From NCBI GenBank assembly GCA_021780195.1, contig JAJXZE010000013.1:1-61361 (forward strand): DNA of 61,361 nt. Direction: 5' to 3'. The translations under genes and the position numbers were made by a program. Of this stretch, positions 3,669-60,443 are shown one piece after another. This DNA comes from a bacterium (GTDB lineage: Bacteria > Patescibacteriota > Minisyncoccia > UBA6257 > 2-01-FULL-56-20). Positions within the stretch are counted from its first letter, which is position 1, and each line of letters opens with the position of its first letter. The notes under the pieces are model-generated. The model had not been told where the DNA came from. It was given only the letters and a program-made list of their open reading frames with translations, and made no database searches.

Positions 3669-4103
3669 ATGGAAAAGATTTTTCCGTTCGTGTCGCCAAA
3701 GGAGCATTATACCGCCGATGTAACGGTGGTGTGGTGCTTTGATGCGCGCTTTCGTCCGTTGTTCAATGCGTACCTTCAATCGAGAGGGTTTGCAGAGAAC
3801 AGGATCGATGAAATAAAATGCGCGGGCGGTGCGAGAGCTCTTGCGGTCGGAAGTCCCGACCGAGATCCTATCTTGGAGCAGGTGAAAAAGTCTGTCCTGC
3901 TCCACAATCCGCAAACCGTGATCCTGATGGATCATATTGATTGCGGTTATACCGGCGGGTCGAAGGCCTTCGAGGGCCGCGAACACGAGATCGACGATCA
4001 TCGGAGGACGCTCCAGGAAAGTATTAAGACGGTTAGAGAAGCGATCCCCGGGGTAACGATCGAAGCCATTTTCGCGGATTTCGAAGGAGTCCACCTGTTG
4101 TAG
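3669..4103 (+). CDS. Small beta-carbonic-anhydrase-like protein (144 aa)
   Basis: C-x-D-x-R (WCFDAR), K-x-A-G-G (IKCAGGA) and H-x-x-C-G (DHIDCG) occur in the order and approximate spacing of beta-class carbonic anhydrases. The ATG at 3669 is preferred over the ORF-track start at 3567, which overlaps atpC. Confidence 0.45.
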   Translation: MEKIFPFVSPKEHYTADVTVVWCFDARFRPLFNAYLQSRGFAENRIDEIKCAGGARALAVGSPDRDPILEQVKKSVLLHNPQTVILMDHIDCGYTGGSKAFEGREHEIDDHRRTLQESIKTVREAIPGVTIEAIFADFEGVHLL

Positions 4104-5787: not shown

Positions 5788-5943
5788 ATGAGACACTACA
5801 TCTGCACCGGCGAGTGCGATGGGATATCGGAAAAGCCGGGGGTATGCCAGTCGGCGACCTGCACGAAGCACGGCGAACCGCTCGCGGAGTGCGACTGCCG
5901 CGACGGAAAGCACTATCAGAAGAAGGACGAGAAGAAAAAATAG
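5788..5943 (+). CDS. Small Cys-rich protein (51 aa), putative metal-binding
   Basis: MRHYICTGECDGISEKPGVCQSATCTKHGEPLAECDCRDGKH contains 6 Cys. AAAGGAAAGG lies upstream of the ATG at 5788. A TATAAT box at 5769-5774 falls inside the longer ORF-track version (5758). Confidence 0.5.
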   Translation: MRHYICTGECDGISEKPGVCQSATCTKHGEPLAECDCRDGKHYQKKDEKKK

Positions 5944-50854: not shown

Positions 50855-52156
50855 ATGGGTCCGAGCCTTATTTTCGACAAATCAACCTTGCAGAGCCTTA
50901 ACCTGGACGAGGCGATGTGGTTCGACAATTTTTTCCTTTGCAACATAACACCGCTTTTCTACATCGAGACCTTGGCCGATCTTGAAAAAGAAGTAAGGGC
51001 TGGGCGTACTCCTGAACAAGTGGTCGGTAACTTGGCGATCAAAACCCCCGATGCAAGTTCGAAATGCAACGTTCACCATCGGCAACTGCTTTCGGGGGAA
51101 CTTTTTTATGGAGAGGAAATTGAGATGGCGCATGGACGCCCGATTATCTCCGGCGGGCAAGCGATGGAACTCGGTGGTAAGACAGGTGTCATTTTCCAAG
51201 AGTCGCCTGAAGAGGAAGCATTTCACCGCTGGCAGCGCGGCGAGTTCCTACTACTTGAGCGAATGCAGGCAAAACTTTGGCGCAATGCACTTTCGAATGT
51301 GAACTTCGAGGAAAACTATCGGCTGTTTCAGATTTTCTTCCCGACGGGAAGGCCTAGGGCACTGGCTGACGTAAAGAGGTTTGTCGATTTTTATACCGGC
51401 GTTCCAGATCAGGAATCAGTGCTATCATTTGGGCTTGCGATGGTTGGTATTAGTGAAGAGGGACAGAAGACCGTGCTTGATCGATGGCGCAAATCTGGTA
51501 AAAGTACGATCAAGGATTTCGTACCTTACTTTACCCATGTTTTCTCAGTTGATTTCTTTTTCAATTTGGCGATCGCGGCTGACCTTATCGGACGCGGTCG
51601 GCCGAGTCATAAAATAGATCTCGCGTATCTATACTATCTCCCGTTCTGTACGGTATTCACGTCGAATGACAAATTGCACGCGGATATCGTTCCGTTCTTT
51701 TTGCGAGATAATCAAGTCTTTATTCTAGGATCGGAGCTGAAGGCCGATCTTGCCAGGCTGGATAGCTACTATAATAAGAATATTCCAGATGAAGTAAAAA
51801 AACGTGGAGTGATACATTTTGCCTTTTATCCTCCGACTGACGGCTCTTTTCTAGTGAGTAAGTTGTGGGATAAATTCATGTCCCCACACTGGCGGGAGCA
51901 CAAAGTAGAGCTGACACCTCAGTCGGATAGCGAAATGAGCAAAGCCCTTTTGGAAGAAATGCGGAAATTCAAGGAGGGTGCCGCACCGATTCCCGCCGAA
52001 AAACGCGTCCACTCCGATTCCGTCGATCATATTATTCTTGAGCGAAGAGTCTATGGACAAAAAGGAAAATGGAAACGATTCCCTCCGGAAGTGCTCAATC
52101 GTCGCAAAAACGAAAAAGGAGAACGGGAAGCAATTCCTGCCGATGAGCAGCAATGA
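50855..52156 (+). CDS. Hypothetical 433-aa protein, possible split PIN-like nuclease
   Basis: N-terminal LIFDKS (D8) and YIETLADL (E38), then KIDLAYLYYLPFCTVFTSNDKLH (D255, D272). These resemble the four acidic positions and the vTxD motif of PIN domains, separated by an insert of about 200 aa. Confidence 0.5.
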   Translation: MGPSLIFDKSTLQSLNLDEAMWFDNFFLCNITPLFYIETLADLEKEVRAGRTPEQVVGNLAIKTPDASSKCNVHHRQLLSGELFYGEEIEMAHGRPIISGGQAMELGGKTGVIFQESPEEEAFHRWQRGEFLLLERMQAKLWRNALSNVNFEENYRLFQIFFPTGRPRALADVKRFVDFYTGVPDQESVLSFGLAMVGISEEGQKTVLDRWRKSGKSTIKDFVPYFTHVFSVDFFFNLAIAADLIGRGRPSHKIDLAYLYYLPFCTVFTSNDKLHADIVPFFLRDNQVFILGSELKADLARLDSYYNKNIPDEVKKRGVIHFAFYPPTDGSFLVSKLWDKFMSPHWREHKVELTPQSDSEMSKALLEEMRKFKEGAAPIPAEKRVHSDSVDHIILERRVYGQKGKWKRFPPEVLNRRKNEKGEREAIPADEQQ

Positions 52157-52279
52157 AATGCGGCATTGTCTCGCTTGGTTCTCACTGGTTCGGGTGACCC
52201 GTCTCGGACTCGAAACAACCAAACGGAAAGCATTGGAAAATATGTATCCCGGTATCCCACGATACTATGCTGATGACTG

Positions 52280-52350
52280 CTGCCGGGCCTGGATTCGAAC
52301 CAAGATAACGACTTCCAGAGAGTCGCGGCCTACCATTAGCCGACCCGGCA
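52280..52350 (-). tRNA. tRNA-Gln (anticodon CUG)
   Basis: Manual fold: acceptor TGCCGGG/CCCGGCA (U1-A72, discriminator G, as in bacterial tRNA-Gln), D arm GGCT-AATGGTA-GGCC, anticodon arm CGACT-CTCTGGA-AGTCG, T arm CTTGG-TTCGAAT-CCAGG. CCA is not encoded. Confidence 0.9.
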
Positions 52351-52351
52351 A

Positions 52352-53029
52352 TCAATACTCGCGAAAATGGAGGAGTTTTCTCAATCGCTCGACCTCCGAC
52401 TTTCTCCTTACGCGTATAGCATTATGACGTATTTCCGGATGAAATTCAAGTTCACGCAAAGCGCGCGCGACGATACCGAGGAGATGTTGATTGAAGTTGC
52501 TGAAGCCGAAGTTATGGGTGCAGGTGGGAAGATGGACGCATAAATATCCTTCGGCCTCGTAGAGGCCCCGCAGGAAGCGGATTGTGTATGCTCGCCGCGC
52601 GCGAATCCATTCCGGCATACGGTACGGGAAGTTCTTTCGGTTTCCGGAGGGTATGCCGAGGCGTTCCGAAATGAATTTTTGGTAAATGCTTATCCGCACC
52701 GCGTTCGAGGCGGCCACCTTGCCGATCATCGGCGTCTTACGAAAGAGCACCTTCGTAATGGCGGCGTAGCGATTGATGAAGTCCATTTTCCGGGCATCGC
52801 CGACAATAATCAGCCGTTCGGTTCTGGGGAATTGCTGAATGTGTCCATCGCCGAGTACCACGCCGATAAATTCGGCGAGCATGCCATTTCGCGGGAAAGA
52901 AGGATATGCAATGACGTGATCACGCCGCCAGGCGGCAAAATTGTCCACTTTTCGCGCCCGCATGGTCGCCGAAGTTTTTGCGACGCTCGGATGGGTTGCC
53001 TTCGTGAGTCCTTTATTCCATGGAATCAT
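52352..53029 (-). CDS. LAGLIDADG-family homing endonuclease (double motif) with an N-terminal NUMOD3-like motif
   Basis: LAEFIGVVLGDGH and FLRGLYEAEGY motifs, with PWNKG at the N-terminus. The TGA stop at 52354-52352 lies 1 nt from tRNA-Gln. Confidence 0.85.
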   Translation of the reverse strand: MIPWNKGLTKATHPSVAKTSATMRARKVDNFAAWRRDHVIAYPSFPRNGMLAEFIGVVLGDGHIQQFPRTERLIIVGDARKMDFINRYAAITKVLFRKTPMIGKVAASNAVRISIYQKFISERLGIPSGNRKNFPYRMPEWIRARRAYTIRFLRGLYEAEGYLCVHLPTCTHNFGFSNFNQHLLGIVARALRELEFHPEIRHNAIRVRRKSEVERLRKLLHFREY

Positions 53030-53072
53030 GGAATAATTGTAGAGCAGTAAGATTAAATTTTTCTAAAGTCAG

Positions 53073-54182
53073 CTACTGCGCTCCGAGGTTTTCGACAAGC
53101 GCGATTTCGAGGGGCACGGCGGCGAAGGGGGAGTAGCGCATTTCGGAATACGCGCGGATGAACGTGCGGAGGAGGCGGACGAGGAACTCCGCGTCGGCGT
53201 CCGCGGCGAGGCGCGCCACGGTCTGGATCTCGTCGCGCGTGAGTTCCTTTTCGAAGACGACGGCGAGCGCGGGGTTCACCTTGAGGGAGAGCACCTTGCG
53301 GAGATAGTGGATGAGGTCGCGCATGAACTGCACCAGATTCACCCCGTCGTCCCCGAGGGCCGCGAGATAAGCGAGCGCCGCTTTGAGGTCCTTCGCAAGG
53401 ATGAGCGCGGCGAACTCGTTGATCTTTTTGAGGCCCGTGCGGCCGGTCACGCGTTCCGCGACCGCGAGGTCGATCGGGATGCCGAGGGAGGCTATCTGGT
53501 CAAGGAGCGAGATCGCGTCACGGAAACTCCCCTCCGCCGCGGCCGCGATGAGCTCGAGCGCCGCCGCGTCGATTGCGATGCGCTCCTCCTTCGCTATCGA
53601 CGCAAGGCGACCGATGATAACGGTCTTCGAGAGCTTTTTGAAGGTGAAGCGCTGGGCGCGCGAGGTGATGGTCGCAGGGAGCTTTTCGTATTCCGTGGTT
53701 GCCATCACGATCACGGCGTGCGCGGGCGGCTCCTCGAGCGTTTTGAGAAGCGCATTGAACGCGGCACCGGTCAGCATGTGCGCCTCGTCGATGATGTACA
53801 CCTTGGAAGTCGCGGAGGCGGGTGAGGTCTTGATGCTCTCCTTCAGGTTTCTGATCTCGTCGATGCCGCGGTTCGAGGCGGCGTCGATCTCGATCACGTC
53901 GAAGGAGTTCTGGGCGTCGATCGCGAGGCACTCGCGGCACTCGTTGCAGGGTTCGCCGCGTTTCGCGAATTCGGGGTCCGTGCGGCGTTTTTCGCAGTTC
54001 AGGAGCTTGGCGAGGAGGCGGGCGGTCGTCGTCTTCCCCGTGCCGCGAGGACCGTGGAAGATGTATGCCTGGCCGAGGCGGCCCGACTTCGCGGCGTTTC
54101 TGAGGATCTCGATATTGGTCTCCTGTCCCAGGACCTCGTCGAGCTTCTTCGGGCGGTACTTGCGGTAGAGGGCTTGCGCCAT
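53073..54182 (-). CDS. dnaX: DNA polymerase III subunit gamma/tau (short, gamma-length form)
   Basis: YRKYRPKKLDEVLGQ, Walker A GPRGTGKTT, Zn module CNECRECLAI, IIDEAHML and SRAQRF. The ATG at 54182 (MAQALYRKY) is preferred over the track start at 54224. Confidence 0.95.
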   Translation of the reverse strand: MAQALYRKYRPKKLDEVLGQETNIEILRNAAKSGRLGQAYIFHGPRGTGKTTTARLLAKLLNCEKRRTDPEFAKRGEPCNECRECLAIDAQNSFDVIEIDAASNRGIDEIRNLKESIKTSPASATSKVYIIDEAHMLTGAAFNALLKTLEEPPAHAVIVMATTEYEKLPATITSRAQRFTFKKLSKTVIIGRLASIAKEERIAIDAAALELIAAAAEGSFRDAISLLDQIASLGIPIDLAVAERVTGRTGLKKINEFAALILAKDLKAALAYLAALGDDGVNLVQFMRDLIHYLRKVLSLKVNPALAVVFEKELTRDEIQTVARLAADADAEFLVRLLRTFIRAYSEMRYSPFAAVPLEIALVENLGAQ

Positions 54183-54205
54183 TACGAAAATCATACGAAA
54201 TATCG

Positions 54206-54234
54206 TTGATTTCGGCAATCGCATCGCGTATTAT
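54206..54234 (+). promoter_or_regulatory. Sigma-70-like promoter TTGATT-17-TATTAT, 9 nt upstream of the scpA ATG
   Basis: -35 at 54206-54211 and -10 at 54229-54234, with the ATG at 54244. A divergent TATGAT box (54190-54195, minus strand) lies 7 nt before the dnaX ATG. Confidence 0.45.
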
Positions 54235-57890: not shown

Positions 57891-58688
57891 ATGTCAGACG
57901 AGAACCTCATTGAAAGCGAACAGGCGTATCCTGCCGAAGCGTCCCGCGAACTGATCGACGCGGGGGTTTTTTACGGCCGTAAGAAGAGCAAGACGAATCC
58001 CAAGATGCGCCCGTACGTGCTCATGAACCGCGGCGGCATCGAGATCATCAATCTCCAGAAGACCGCCGAGCTCATGGAGAAAGCTACCGCGGCCATCCGC
58101 GAAAAAGTGAGCAAGAACGGCCTTGTCCTCCTTGTGGGAACCGAACCCTCCGCCGAAGCGTCCATCACGGGCATCGCGAAGAGGTTCGGCCTCCCGTATG
58201 TCACCGGGCGCTGGGTGGGCGGCGCGATCACGAACTTCAAGATCATTGCGCTTCGTATTGAGCACATGAAGAAGCTTCGCACGGATCTCGCGTCCGGTGC
58301 GCTCGTCGAAAAATACACCAAGAAAGAGCGCCTGGGTCTCGAGCGCGAACTTGCGCACCTCGAGGAGCTCATGGGCGGGCTCGAAAACCTCACGCGTGAG
58401 CCGGATCTCGTGATCATGGTGGACCCAGTCATGCACCGCACTGCCCTCCGCGAAGCGCGCGTGAAGAAGATCCCGATCGCGTCGCTCGCGAACGTGGACG
58501 CGGATCCCGATGAGGTGGATCATCTGGTTCCGGGCAATGACCGCGCCCGCGCGAGCATCGAGTGGTTCTTCGGCAACGTGGAGAAGGCAATCGAAGAGGG
58601 CATCAAGCTGAGGGTCATCCCTGAGGCGGCAGGAGAAGGTGCGGGAGCCGCGCCCGTATCCGCCGCGCCCGCGGTGAGTGCCGAATAA
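57891..58688 (+). CDS. rpsB: 30S ribosomal protein S2
   Basis: Typical uS2 sequence (AGVFYGRKKSKTNPKMRPYV...) with an A/G/P-rich C-terminal tail. Confidence 0.95.
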   Translation: MSDENLIESEQAYPAEASRELIDAGVFYGRKKSKTNPKMRPYVLMNRGGIEIINLQKTAELMEKATAAIREKVSKNGLVLLVGTEPSAEASITGIAKRFGLPYVTGRWVGGAITNFKIIALRIEHMKKLRTDLASGALVEKYTKKERLGLERELAHLEELMGGLENLTREPDLVIMVDPVMHRTALREARVKKIPIASLANVDADPDEVDHLVPGNDRARASIEWFFGNVEKAIEEGIKLRVIPEAAGEGAGAAPVSAAPAVSAE

Positions 58689-58707
58689 TTTTTTAACATC
58701 CGCACAC

Positions 58708-59169
58708 ATGGCGAACGAAAAAAACGTGAGCATGGAAGAGGTGCAGAAACTGCGCGCGGAGACGGGCGCGGGCGTGATGGATTGCCGTAAGGCGCTCATC
58801 GAGGCGAACGGCAACTTCGAGAAGGCGAAGGCCGTGATCCGCGAGAAGGGGCTTTCGAAGGTGGAAAAGCGCGCCGATCGCGCGACCGGCGCAGGGCTGG
58901 TTCATTCCTACGTCCATAACGGCCGCATCGGCGTCCTCGTGGAGGTTCGCGCCGAGACCGACTTCGTGGTCCGTTCGGAACCGTTCCAGGAGCTCGCGCA
59001 CGAGCTCGCGATGCACATCGCGGCCGCCGCCCCCGCCAACGTGGAAGAGCTTCTCGCCCAGCCCTACGTGAAGGACGAATCGCGCACGGTGAAGGACGTG
59101 GTGAACGAGGTGATCGCGAAGACCGGCGAGAACGTTTCCGTGAGCCAGTTCGCCCGGATCGAGGCATAG
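58708..59169 (+). CDS. tsf: Elongation factor Ts, minimal 153-aa form
   Basis: UBA-like N-terminus (VQKLRAETGAGVMDCRKALIEANGNFEKA), TDFV motif (RAETDFVVRSEPFQELAHELAMHIAA) and the C-terminal IAKTGENVSVSQFARIE. Confidence 0.9.
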   Translation: MANEKNVSMEEVQKLRAETGAGVMDCRKALIEANGNFEKAKAVIREKGLSKVEKRADRATGAGLVHSYVHNGRIGVLVEVRAETDFVVRSEPFQELAHELAMHIAAAAPANVEELLAQPYVKDESRTVKDVVNEVIAKTGENVSVSQFARIEA

Positions 59170-59184
59170 CGGTATACTTACCTC

Positions 59185-59529
59185 ATGGTAGAGATTATTT
59201 TTACGTGCGCGCTCATGGTATCGCTCGGCGCGATGCTGTATCTTATGGTGCGCGCCCTGCCGCGGATCGCGGAAGAGCCGCCGGCGGAAAAGCGCGGCCT
59301 GCTTGATCGCTGGGCGCACTCCGAGATCCCCGAGAGAGTGGACCGCGCGCTGAACGGATTCCTCCTCAAGTTCCTGCGACGCTTCCGGGTGTTCGTACTG
59401 AAGATCGACAATGCACTTGCGGGCCATCTCCAGCGGGTGAAACCGGAGGATGCGGACAAGAGGCCGGCCATTGATTTTAAGGAGATTGCGGGGCAGGGGA
59501 AAGAAGAGAGAGAGGACGAGAGGAGTTAA
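59185..59529 (+). CDS. Hypothetical membrane-anchored protein (114 aa)
   Basis: N-terminal TM helix and a charged C-terminus. A TATACT box at 59173-59178 lies 6 nt before the ATG. Confidence 0.45.
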   Translation: MVEIIFTCALMVSLGAMLYLMVRALPRIAEEPPAEKRGLLDRWAHSEIPERVDRALNGFLLKFLRRFRVFVLKIDNALAGHLQRVKPEDADKRPAIDFKEIAGQGKEEREDERS

Positions 59530-59564
59530 GATATTTTTAATGATTGCTTTGGTATGCTTGAGGC

Positions 59565-60395
59565 GTGCCAAAACGATGGACGAAAAAGGAGGAGTCATTT
59601 TATCGGACGCAAATCCGCATTTTATATATTAATCAGAATAAGACCATCAGTGAGATTGCTAAGATATTAAATATTGGTGAGTCGAGCGTTGGGAAAAGAC
59701 TGCATCGCCTCGGTATTGAGACCGTACCGACGACGAAGCTTCATTATTGCAATCGGAGGACCGACGTGGTGGTTCCATCCAATCGTTCGAATGACCTGGC
59801 AGAATTTTTCGGCATCATGCTGGGTGATGGCCACCTCACTTCATCGCAGGTCTGCGTGACGCTGGGGACGAAAGAAATATCTTATGCCCGACACGTGGCA
59901 CATCTCTATCAACGCCTCTTCGGGGTTCTTCCCAGAGTGTCGGTTTCACGGAAGGGATATGTTGGGGTGTGCCTCTCATCGGTTATAGCCTCCAAGTGGC
60001 TCTCCTCCGAGGGTTTGGTTTATAACAAAGTTAAGTCTCAGGTTGATGTTCCCGGATGGGTTTTTCGGAGAAAAATATGGATCGCAAGATGCGTGCGTGG
60101 TTTCTTTGACACCGACGGATCGATATATTCACTGAGATTCGGCATCCAATTGTCGTTTACCAACGCTTCGCGGCCGCTTCTCTCTTCTTTACAGAGAGCC
60201 CTGAAGCAATTACTATATAAGGTGTCAGAAATAAGCGGGCCACGGTTTTATATTACAAGGTTTGAAGATATCGAAAGATTCTTCACGGAAATCGGACCTC
60301 AGAATAAAAAACACCTGGAACGCTATCGAGCAATTTTACAATCGAGGAGGAGATTAAGCGCAGGTGACGGAGTGGTCAATCGTAGCGCGCTGTAA
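59565..60395 (+). CDS. LAGLIDADG-family homing endonuclease (double motif) with an N-terminal HTH
   Basis: LAEFFGIMLGDGH and VRGFFDTDGS motifs, with HTH TISEIAKILNIGESSVGKRLHRLGI. GTG start. The ORF has no stop before the tRNA and ends at a TAA inside tRNA-Tyr. Confidence 0.8.
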   Translation: MPKRWTKKEESFYRTQIRILYINQNKTISEIAKILNIGESSVGKRLHRLGIETVPTTKLHYCNRRTDVVVPSNRSNDLAEFFGIMLGDGHLTSSQVCVTLGTKEISYARHVAHLYQRLFGVLPRVSVSRKGYVGVCLSSVIASKWLSSEGLVYNKVKSQVDVPGWVFRRKIWIARCVRGFFDTDGSIYSLRFGIQLSFTNASRPLLSSLQRALKQLLYKVSEISGPRFYITRFEDIERFFTEIGPQNKKHLERYRAILQSRRRLSAGDGVVNRSAL

Positions 60396-60443
60396 ACGCG
60401 CCGCCTTCGGGCTACACAGGTTCGAATCCTGTCCTGCGCACCA
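60358..60443 (+). tRNA. tRNA-Tyr (anticodon GUA), long variable arm, CCA encoded
   Basis: Manual fold: acceptor GCGCAGG/CCTGCGC, D arm ACGG-AGTGGTCAA-TCGT, anticodon arm GCGCG-CTGTAAA-CGCGC, variable arm GCC-TTCG-GGC, T arm ACAGG-TTCGAAT-CCTGT, then A-CCA. Confidence 0.92.

Follow-up and report, generated by a model that had tools for sequence, protein, structure and literature searches.

LAGLIDADG homing endonucleases make a site-specific cut in a target of ~20 bp and leave 4-nt 3' overhangs. The known ways for their genes to inhabit an essential RNA gene are a self-splicing intron or an intervening sequence. In fungal mitochondria, the endonuclease open reading frame (ORF) of an mORF lies in atp6, atp9, cox2 or nad3 and comes with a foreign replacement C-terminus, and the native C-terminus persists as a remnant; examples are found in atp6 of Allomyces macrogynus and in atp6, atp9, cox2 and nad3 of Glomus (PMC3630166). 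Here we analysed a 61,361-nt contig from a member of the Patescibacteria (JAJXZE010000013.1; the whole contig is hereafter called the window), in which two LAGLIDADG endonuclease genes, ORF1 and ORF2, stand on the 5' side of tRNA-Gln(CUG) and tRNA-Tyr(GUA), respectively. Comparison with their relatives indicates that both are probably the cargo of intron-less homing cassettes, each of which invades one specific tRNA gene.

The fungal mitochondrial mORF appears to be the closest mechanistic precedent. In both systems, an endonuclease ORF (often LAGLIDADG) lies directly in a gene, outside any intron or intein, a diverged replacement end is carried along, and the native end is left as a remnant. 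Unlike the hosts of mORFs, the hosts here are bacterial chromosomal tRNA genes, which have no reading frame to preserve. The polarity of the families of ORF1 and ORF2 (families 1 and 2) is also reversed, with the replacement 5' segment after the ORF. In further contrast to mORFs, the cassettes here carry their own extended −10 promoter and a predicted leaderless start, and the ORF and the rebuilt tRNA lie within 0–9 nt of each other or overlap.

Phages and islands that integrate by means of an integrase also target tRNA genes, carry part of the tRNA and reconstitute the gene after insertion. Those elements measure kilobases, rely on tyrosine or serine recombinases and as a rule duplicate the 3' part, whereas here the endonuclease is the sole gene and the duplicated part in families 1 and 2 is the 5' 22–27 nt. 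Phage T4 SegB is a free-standing GIY-YIG endonuclease that is encoded in a tRNA gene cluster and cuts tRNA genes via the T-psi-C motif (PMC2330249). The elements here are likewise free-standing and associated with tRNA genes, and SegB drives the inheritance of itself and of the neighbouring tRNA genes. However, SegB is phage-borne, lies between tRNA genes, has several targets and has no duplicated tRNA segment, whereas the elements here encode LAGLIDADG proteins, are chromosomal in Patescibacteria, have one tRNA species each and are inserted within the gene. In candidate phyla radiation (CPR) bacteria, LAGLIDADG genes, including LAGLIDADG_3 genes, occur in rRNA-gene insertions with a patchy distribution that suggests homing, and tRNA genes are not mentioned (PMC11270868). 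Those genes share the host group, the superfamily and the conserved RNA-gene targets with the elements here. Unlike the CPR 16S and 23S intervening sequences or introns, which are removed from the rRNA, the cassettes here would rebuild the tRNA by segment duplication.

The first-pass annotation of the window did not recognise the arrangement as a described one. In agreement with this, the searchable full-text literature on LAGLIDADG, tRNA genes and Patescibacteria or Parcubacteria yielded no description of it. The mechanism is known from fungal mitochondria, and we could not find it described for bacterial tRNA genes.

Linkage of each endonuclease family to one tRNA gene

ORF1 (52352–53029, minus strand) encodes 225 aa with a 'PWNKG' N-terminal extension and ends at TGA (52354–52352). 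A single base, T 52351, separates this stop codon from nucleotide +1 (52350) of the functional tRNA-Gln(CUG) at 52279–52350 on the same strand. The 1-nt spacer that had been reported is thus borne out by the ORF and ARAGORN coordinates, and the tRNA call is upheld as well, with +1 placed at 52350 by ARAGORN and a score of 54.4 bits for Rfam RF00005, above the gathering score of 29. ORF2 (59565–60395, plus strand) starts at GTG and encodes 276 aa with an N-terminal helix-turn-helix. Its partner, a functional tRNA-Tyr(GUA) with an encoded CCA, lies at 60358–60443 on the plus strand (ARAGORN; Rfam, 58 bits). The first-pass annotation placed ORF2 in head-to-tail contact with this tRNA, which is wrong. 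Specifically, the 3' end of ORF2 lies 38 nt inside the tRNA gene, and its stop codon TAA (60393–60395) overlaps the anticodon GTA (60392–60394) in the anticodon loop. These two tRNAs are the only ones in the window, and both have a LAGLIDADG ORF on the 5' side.

Homologs of ORF1 (350) and ORF2 (590) share 45–67% identity and come essentially all from Patescibacteria (Paceibacterota/Parcubacteria-type) assemblies of many candidate phyla. For each family, 80 genomic loci were examined (loci are referred to below by L numbers); selection was by best protein match, which underestimates how frequent decayed copies are. The suggestion that a homing endonuclease gene (HEG) recurs next to a tRNA gene held when the homolog distances were tabulated. 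In family 1, tRNA-Gln(CTG) lies directly 3' of the ORF on the same strand at 77 of 77 evaluable loci, and the remaining three contigs stop within ~60 nt of the ORF. In family 2, tRNA-Tyr(GTA) lies 3' of the ORF at 78 of 78 evaluable loci, and the other two are contig ends. None of the other tRNAs in 280 loci is preceded by a LAGLIDADG ORF. The linkage between ORF and tRNA is not due to chance.

Tight packing of ORF and tRNA is conserved, while the exact 1-nt spacer is not: the family-1 spacer has a mode of 4 nt and ranges from −82 to +39. In family 2, the ORF reads into tRNA-Tyr at ~70 loci, and the stops cluster at −6, −15 and −37/−38. Most family-2 ORFs (L081–L160; window, 60358–60395) have no stop codon of their own and take it from within tRNA-Tyr, either as TAG in the D-arm (−6 or −15) or as UAA formed from the GUA anticodon and A37 (−37/−38). 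Such an mRNA would lose its stop codon on processing by RNase P.

The 5' neighbours of family 1 vary, with ftsE/ftsX at about one third of the loci and pyrG-like genes, dnaX and others elsewhere. The 3' neighbour genes are almost never shared between loci. Vertical synteny was rejected as an explanation of the linkage, because the neighbours differ on the 5' side and are rarely shared on the 3' side.

Many contigs end 60–200 nt past the cassette-linked tRNA-Gln (L001, L006, L012, L013, L016, L020, L023, L026, L046, L050, L051, L060 and L072), and serine-recombinase-like genes lie 3' of tRNA-Gln in L065 and L068. Integration or strain variation may have a hotspot of its own on the 3' side of this tRNA. 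In family 2, the cassette separates tRNA-Thr(TGT) from tRNA-Tyr(GTA) within a tRNA cluster at L093, L113, L114, L133, L135, L141–L143, L146, L154 and L159. The same two tRNAs are directly adjacent in empty relatives such as L340.

Upstream tRNA fragments, empty alleles and the cassette promoter

Occupancy was scanned in one genome per species with patterns taken from tRNA 3' halves, which take no account of the 5' half or of what lies upstream. The ORF is present at 4 of ~104 evaluable tRNA-Gln(CUG) genes, with a further decayed stub at L211, and at 3 of 73 tRNA-Tyr genes. Occupancy is thus ~3–5%, and ~95% of comparable tRNA genes have no such ORF. The common empty alleles are TGCGGGATCGTCTAATGGTAGGACACATCCCTCTGGAGGATG for tRNA-Gln and GCGTCGGTGGCAGAGTGGTCAATTGCAATTGACTGTAAATCAAT for tRNA-Tyr. 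Presence and absence are polymorphic at one position, with both occupied and empty alleles found after ftsX and after dnaX. Specifically, tRNA-Gln lies ~60 nt after dnaX in the HEG-less loci L168 and L233, as in the context of the window, and dnaX of the empty-site L168 is 82–85% identical to dnaX of the occupied L002–L004.

In empty alleles with ftsX on the 5' side (L175, L206, L225, L232, L243, L266 and L269), the ftsX stop lies 0–5 nt from tRNA-Gln +1. An abutting stop codon is therefore the native state of the locus and is not peculiar to the HEG. In HEG-less genomes, the ftsEX transcript seems normally to end in tRNA-Gln, which RNase P would cut off where the coding region stops. Family-1 ORFs end in FRxY*, similar to the IRKYL end of ftsX, and this likeness was treated as a coincidence of A/T-rich codons.

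In occupied alleles of the ftsX context, the ftsX stop and a few further bases precede TGCGGGATCGTCTAATGGTAG(G), which is the first 21–22 nt of tRNA-Gln. This 5' fragment lies at the exact place of the intact tRNA in empty alleles. Past the fragment, empty alleles go on as tRNA, whereas occupied alleles pass into an A/T-rich stretch, TGnTAnnnT, 6 nt and ATG. The fragment where the intact tRNA lies in empty alleles, together with the complete tRNA 3' of the ORF, argues that the ORF has been inserted inside the tRNA gene along with a replacement 5' segment. The insertion appears to fall at the junction of the D-arm and the anticodon stem, near position 23/24 of tRNA-Gln(CUG) and near position 27 of tRNA-Tyr(GUA), and the tRNA that touches the ORF is probably the rebuilt copy.

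A TCTAATGGTAG-like fragment is present 5' of the ORF at 60 of 81 family-1 loci, and a tRNA-Tyr fragment (…GAGTGGTCAAT-TGCAA, positions 1 to ~27) at 50 of 80 family-2 loci, against 0.016 expected per equivalent stretch in each family. Strict regular expressions undercount the remnants because the fragments decay. Without motif pre-selection, alignment scores of at least 13 were obtained at 37 of 77 and 30 of 77 loci in the two families and at none in shuffles. In relatives, the ORF is therefore flanked by two copies of a host-gene segment, one belonging to the functional gene and the other a remnant. The LAGLIDADG ORF is the sole ORF that separates the remnant from the rebuilt tRNA, and the cassette has no recombinase gene. 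An Rfam search of both window cassettes (gathering scores and E <= 1) returned the two tRNAs only and no intron family. A group I intron or other structured RNA was ruled out on this basis, as the tRNAs are uninterrupted (54–58 bits) and the insertion is at the D-arm, whereas a group I intron in a tRNA gene typically lies in the anticodon loop.

The first-pass annotation also proposed that a free-standing HEG homes to the 5' boundary of a tRNA gene and sits beside its intact target, the tRNA being an ancestral resident. The window itself would fit this proposal, since it has no clear upstream remnant and ORF1 ends 1 nt before the tRNA, and SegB of phage T4 offers a parallel, being encoded by a free-standing gene among the tRNA genes that it cleaves (PMC2330249). 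In relatives, however, the resident tRNA 5' part lies upstream of the ORF at its native position, the ORF-linked tRNA copy differs from this upstream part, and the insertion point is inside the gene, at ~position 22–27 in the D-arm region. Homing to an intact 5' junction is thus very improbable. A mobile HEG–tRNA unit, which was offered as another option, comes close to the architecture in relatives, as the endonuclease gene is accompanied by tRNA sequence; what differs is that the tRNA touching the ORF would be a reconstituted copy.

The extended −10 motif TGnTAnnnT is found in 48 of 60 remnant-bearing loci of family 1 (6.4 expected) and in 29 of 51 of family 2 (4.5 expected). The modal offset of the box from the remnant is 17 or 19 nt (19 nt in family 2), and in both families the start codon most often follows the −10 box after 6 nt (32 loci in family 1). 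On account of this 6-nt gap, a leaderless mRNA is predicted. The window cassettes keep the −10-to-start spacing of their relatives. In cassette 1, the promoter scan gives TAGAAA-18-TACAAT at 53065–53036, and the −10-like box TACAAT (53036–53041, minus strand) lies 6 nt 5' of the ORF1 ATG. In cassette 2, the extended −10 box TGGTATGCT (59550–59558, plus strand) is followed by 6 nt (TGAGGC) and the GTG start.

As had been pointed out, the space between ORF1 and tRNA-Gln is too short for a promoter of the tRNA's own, and no promoter is conserved inside the ORF 3' ends either. Promoter-like sites in the last 120 nt of family-1 ORFs number 23 against 14.6 expected and 18 against 15.3 expected, and those of family-2 ORFs are below expectation. 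The 3' part of ORF1 in the window has a weak promoter-like sequence, TTGAAT-17-CATAAT, at 52449–52421. A separate tRNA promoter inside the ORF 3' end was rejected, given no or slight enrichment across the families. Because there is neither room for a tRNA promoter nor a conserved one in the ORF 3' end, co-transcription followed by RNase P release would be the most economical reading.

In the window clade (the window and L002–L004), the ORFs and the −10-to-ATG spacing are intact and the remnants are decayed. A candidate decayed tRNA-Tyr 5' remnant lies at 59520–59530 on the plus strand (GAGGAGTTAAG versus GAGTGGTCAAT, 7 of 11 matches, which is weak evidence). Its distance from the TG in the −10 box, which lies 19 nt further 3', is the one that the relatives predict, and a binomial estimate puts the probability of 7 or more matches out of 11 at a single fixed position at ~0.008. 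The candidate overlaps the 3' end of an unannotated 114-aa ORF (59185–59529). Upstream of ORF1, TTTAATCTTAC at 53057–53047 also has 7 of 11 matches and was rejected as a remnant because it is outside the canonical register. The remnants in the window are unconvincing, so the architecture rests on relatives. Both window cassettes look old, with upstream remnants that are largely decayed.

At L008, L010, L015, L020, L028 and L029, the D-loop part of the remnant (TCATCTAATGGTAG) is perfect or near-perfect, and the acceptor-stem part is replaced by unrelated sequence. At L016 (~3790–3990), the tRNA-Gln remnant is itself split by a G+C-rich insert of ~45 nt (TGCGGGATCGTC-ctaccgcatcggtggggcgccggagaggcgagggg-CGTCTAATGGTAGG).

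The endonuclease proteins and a third family at tRNA-Leu

Both proteins match Pfam LAGLIDADG_3 (PF14528), ORF1 with 26.4 bits (cut-off, 22.5) and ORF2 with 48.8 bits, which is also above the cut-off. The Pfam search of ORF1 and ORF2 gave LAGLIDADG_3 and helix-turn-helix signals only, with no GIY-YIG domain. The ORF1 motifs are GVVLGDG (D61) and LYEAEG (E160), and both acidic residues are invariant in 29 homologs. The ORF2 motifs, MLGDG (D88) and GFFDTDGS, are invariant in 28 sequences. The AlphaFold model of ORF1 (predicted local distance difference test, 92.3; predicted template-modelling score, 0.82) has the order of secondary-structure elements that is expected for tandem alpha-beta-beta-alpha-beta-beta-alpha domains, two of which make up the DNA-binding saddle of such enzymes. 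Its best Foldseek matches are I-DmoI–DNA complexes (probability 1.0; template-modelling score 0.6–0.7 relative to the target), and the structural neighbours include bI3 maturase and WhiA.

I-DmoI, an archaeal monomeric enzyme, is the closest solved structure to ORF1, and both have two LAGLIDADG motifs per chain. The sequence identity between them is ~18%; I-DmoI is encoded in an rRNA intron, and ORF1 has ~45 N-terminal residues beyond I-DmoI, while ORF2 has its N-terminal helix-turn-helix. The family-1 profile search matches I-DmoI (E = 5e-4) and I-AniI, and the family-2 profile search matches intein endonuclease domains. Judged by these comparisons, both ORF products are probably structurally ordinary monomeric double-motif endonucleases with extra N-terminal DNA-binding segments. 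Their predicted target is the empty tRNA allele around positions 12–35.

The GC content is 52.9% for ORF1 and 46.3% for ORF2 (59565–60357). In comparison, it is 62.8% for dnaX, ~62% for the host-gene reference of dnaX and rpsB-tsf (53073–54224 and 57891–59169), and 59.1% for the window. The low GC content of the two ORFs points to a foreign origin. In IMG/VR, there are no family-1 relatives, and family 2 has distant relatives only (20–35% identity). Phage carriage was rejected on this result.

A third LAGLIDADG_3 family (~190 aa, without the N-terminal extension, 874 homologs) was first met beside tRNA-Leu(CAA) in L086 (7404–8067, minus strand). In this family, tRNA-Leu(CAA) lies 5' of the ORF on the same strand at 71 of 80 metagenomic loci (L411–L490), and the ORF begins 0–60 nt after the tRNA at 61 of 80. 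A tRNA-Leu 3' fragment is found just after the ORF at ~15 of 70 loci; the fragment of L434 spans the anticodon stem to the 3' end. Fragment alignment scores of at least 16 occur at 9 of 70 loci, versus 1 of 70 in shuffles. Family 3 thus appears to mirror the design of families 1 and 2, and its insertion point, too, appears to lie near position 26/27. It has the polarity of an mORF, namely replacement part, ORF and native remnant. At one family-3 locus, L456 (488–1140), tRNA-Leu(CAA) lies 2 nt 3' of the ORF, which is the geometry of families 1 and 2.

Divergence of the linked tRNA copies and the proposed homing cycle

The tRNA copies linked to the ORFs differ from the common empty alleles near the junction. 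The D-arm of tRNA-Gln in the window is TCGGCTAATGGTAGGCC, not the common empty-allele type TCGTCTAATGGTAGGAC. The tRNA-Tyr of the window has an A10:T25 pair, versus the common empty-allele pair G10:C25, next to the junction. The common tRNA-Tyr D-arm, GAG[CT]GGTC[AT]A[AT][CT][GA]CA, is found in 49 of 70 empty alleles versus 0 of 79 linked copies (p = 4e-15; pattern-matched subset), and the common tRNA-Gln D-arm in 52 of 99 empty alleles versus 3 of 29 linked copies (p = 3e-5). D-loop lengths vary in family 2, which affects the per-position comparison.

A paired upstream alignment test was run without motif pre-selection. The 300 nt 5' of the ORF are closer to the commonest empty allele than to the tRNA of the same locus at 55 versus 7 loci in family 1 and at 63 versus 7 loci in family 2. 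Aligned to the tRNA of their own locus, the upstream regions give weak scores, because the remnant differs from the functional copy. The divergence of the linked copy would reflect immunity of the target site, acquisition of that tRNA from a foreign source, or both.

Direct repeats of tRNA sequence on both sides of the cassette could also have been left by a recombinase or transposase acting in trans on tRNA genes, in which case the ~22–27-nt repeat would be a target-site duplication and the LAGLIDADG gene cargo only. tRNA genes are classic integration sites, serine-recombinase-like genes lie 3' of tRNA-Gln in L065 and L068, and the acceptor part is missing from some remnants, which would suit a unit whose left end is fixed. 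However, a target-site duplication of 22–27 nt would be unusually long for a transposase, and the cassette has no recombinase gene, the endonuclease being its sole ORF. Three LAGLIDADG families each go with a different tRNA, so that specificity tracks the encoded protein. In addition, the repeat copies are usually non-identical, with the functional one systematically diverged, which is unexpected of a duplication made by insertion. A passenger role of the LAGLIDADG gene is thus quite improbable.

The intron-less homing cassette, in contrast, would consist of ~20–35 A/T-rich bases with the extended −10 promoter, 6 nt, the LAGLIDADG ORF and a replacement tRNA 5' segment that lies directly after the ORF end or overlaps it. 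This segment would join the remaining tRNA, so that an intact tRNA is rebuilt 3' of the ORF, and the original 5' segment would be left upstream as a dead fragment. Rebuilding of the tRNA by the carried 5' segment would explain why ORF1 ends 1 nt before tRNA-Gln and why ORF2 runs into tRNA-Tyr. In the proposed cycle, the enzyme would cut the common empty tRNA allele near positions 22–27, and double-strand-break repair would copy the cassette, often with the whole linked tRNA, into the cut allele, with the upstream remnant and the downstream tRNA providing homology. The altered D-arm of the linked tRNA would escape recutting. A single ORF–tRNA transcript would start at the extended −10 promoter, and RNase P would free the tRNA at or inside the coding end; in family 2, this release would remove the stop codon of the mRNA and might limit endonuclease output.

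Several observations weigh against this account. In the window, ORF1 has no remnant in register, and the candidate of ORF2 matches at 7 of 11 positions. The target site and the immunity mechanism are themselves inferred, and the evidence throughout is comparative. Among cassette-linked tRNA-Gln copies, 5 of 78 keep the common D-arm, which means that this motif cannot be the sole basis of immunity. The D-arm contrasts use phylogenetically related sequences, and some of the empty alleles come from other phyla, which the paired tests mitigate and do not remove. Many remnants have an intact D-loop part and have lost the acceptor part, a pattern for which the mere decay of a dead fragment does not account; selection may act on the half-site beside the cassette promoter, whether as an operator or as a homology arm, or the left end of the unit may be fixed. 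Finally, genomes differ less in the HEG protein than in the adjacent FtsX (median identity, 57% versus 40%), and the divergence of the one correlates with that of the other (rho 0.48). This conservation pattern would also fit long vertical inheritance under selection.

The last two findings, the partial correlation included, would be expected of a domesticated LAGLIDADG protein with a host role that involves the adjacent tRNA, as a WhiA-like regulator or a maturase-like RNA chaperone, in an operon that is inherited vertically and lost many times. The 45–67% protein identity across many candidate phyla, the persistence of the ORF–tRNA juxtaposition while the genomic context changes, and bI3 maturase and WhiA among the structural neighbours are in line with such a role. 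WhiA, however, has lost the catalytic acidic residues, whereas both are invariant here; the WhiA_N match is below the Pfam cut-off (17.6 versus 23.4 bits), and the helix-turn-helix, which is C-terminal in WhiA-like regulators, is N-terminal in ORF2. Such regulators are near-universal in their clade, whereas occupancy here is patchy at ~3–5%, with empty sites in near relatives, and frameshifted and stub copies exist. The upstream tRNA remnant speaks for an insertion event rather than an ancestral operon, and the window ORFs are markedly lower in GC than host genes. Domestication is thus unlikely, and we favour homing cassettes.

It is a tentative but real possibility that Patescibacteria harbour a general and so far undescribed class of intron-less LAGLIDADG gene drives for tRNA alleles, with at least three families (Gln-CUG, Tyr-GUA and Leu-CAA), each of which would recognise its tRNA between D-arm and anticodon stem, cut the common allele and install the HEG together with a cleavage-resistant tRNA. 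Such elements would be a main driver of D-arm diversity and of the tRNA-gene fragments that these genomes contain. The retained half-site could then be an operator for autorepression or a homology arm, and the ORF–tRNA overlap would couple endonuclease output to RNase P processing.

If the cassettes are what they seem, carrying a spare piece of the gene would be a third way for a homing endonuclease to inhabit an essential RNA gene, and a mechanism of mitochondrial protein genes would extend to bacterial tRNA genes in hundreds of uncultivated species. It would also explain stray tRNA fragments and unusual D-arms in CPR genomes. For annotation, a short tRNA-like fragment 5' of a LAGLIDADG gene should then be taken as a scar, not noise. 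The families are natural endonucleases with predicted, writable targets (D-arm to anticodon stem), useful for meganuclease engineering, and the system is suited to asking whether RNase P processing limits the expression of an upstream or overlapping gene.

Among other features of the window, dnaX (DNA polymerase III gamma/tau; 53073–54224, minus strand) is the host gene 5' of cassette 1 and lies outside the element; its Pfam matches are DNA_pol3_delta2 (147.8 bits), the lid domain and domain III. Two further plus-strand ORFs have no Pfam match, namely a 433-aa ORF (50855–52156) convergent with tRNA-Gln and the 114-aa ORF (59185–59529) just 5' of cassette 2. Decayed family-1 copies in other genomes include a frameshifted one (L241, 3284–3821), a C-terminally truncated one with a 39-nt spacer (L009, 4001–4666) and the stub in L211 (~5880–5928), of which only the last ~15 codons remain, before a tRNA-Gln with a non-standard D-arm. 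Some family-1 proteins have N-terminal extensions of 30–65 residues (L070, L073 and L080 and, in longer forms, L047, L051, L053, L057, L061 and L066). One type of extension has a CxxC motif (MVKCKLCGKHFK…) with a zinc-finger-like look. Even so, the distance from the tRNA remnant to the start codon is ~30 nt in these extended ORFs.

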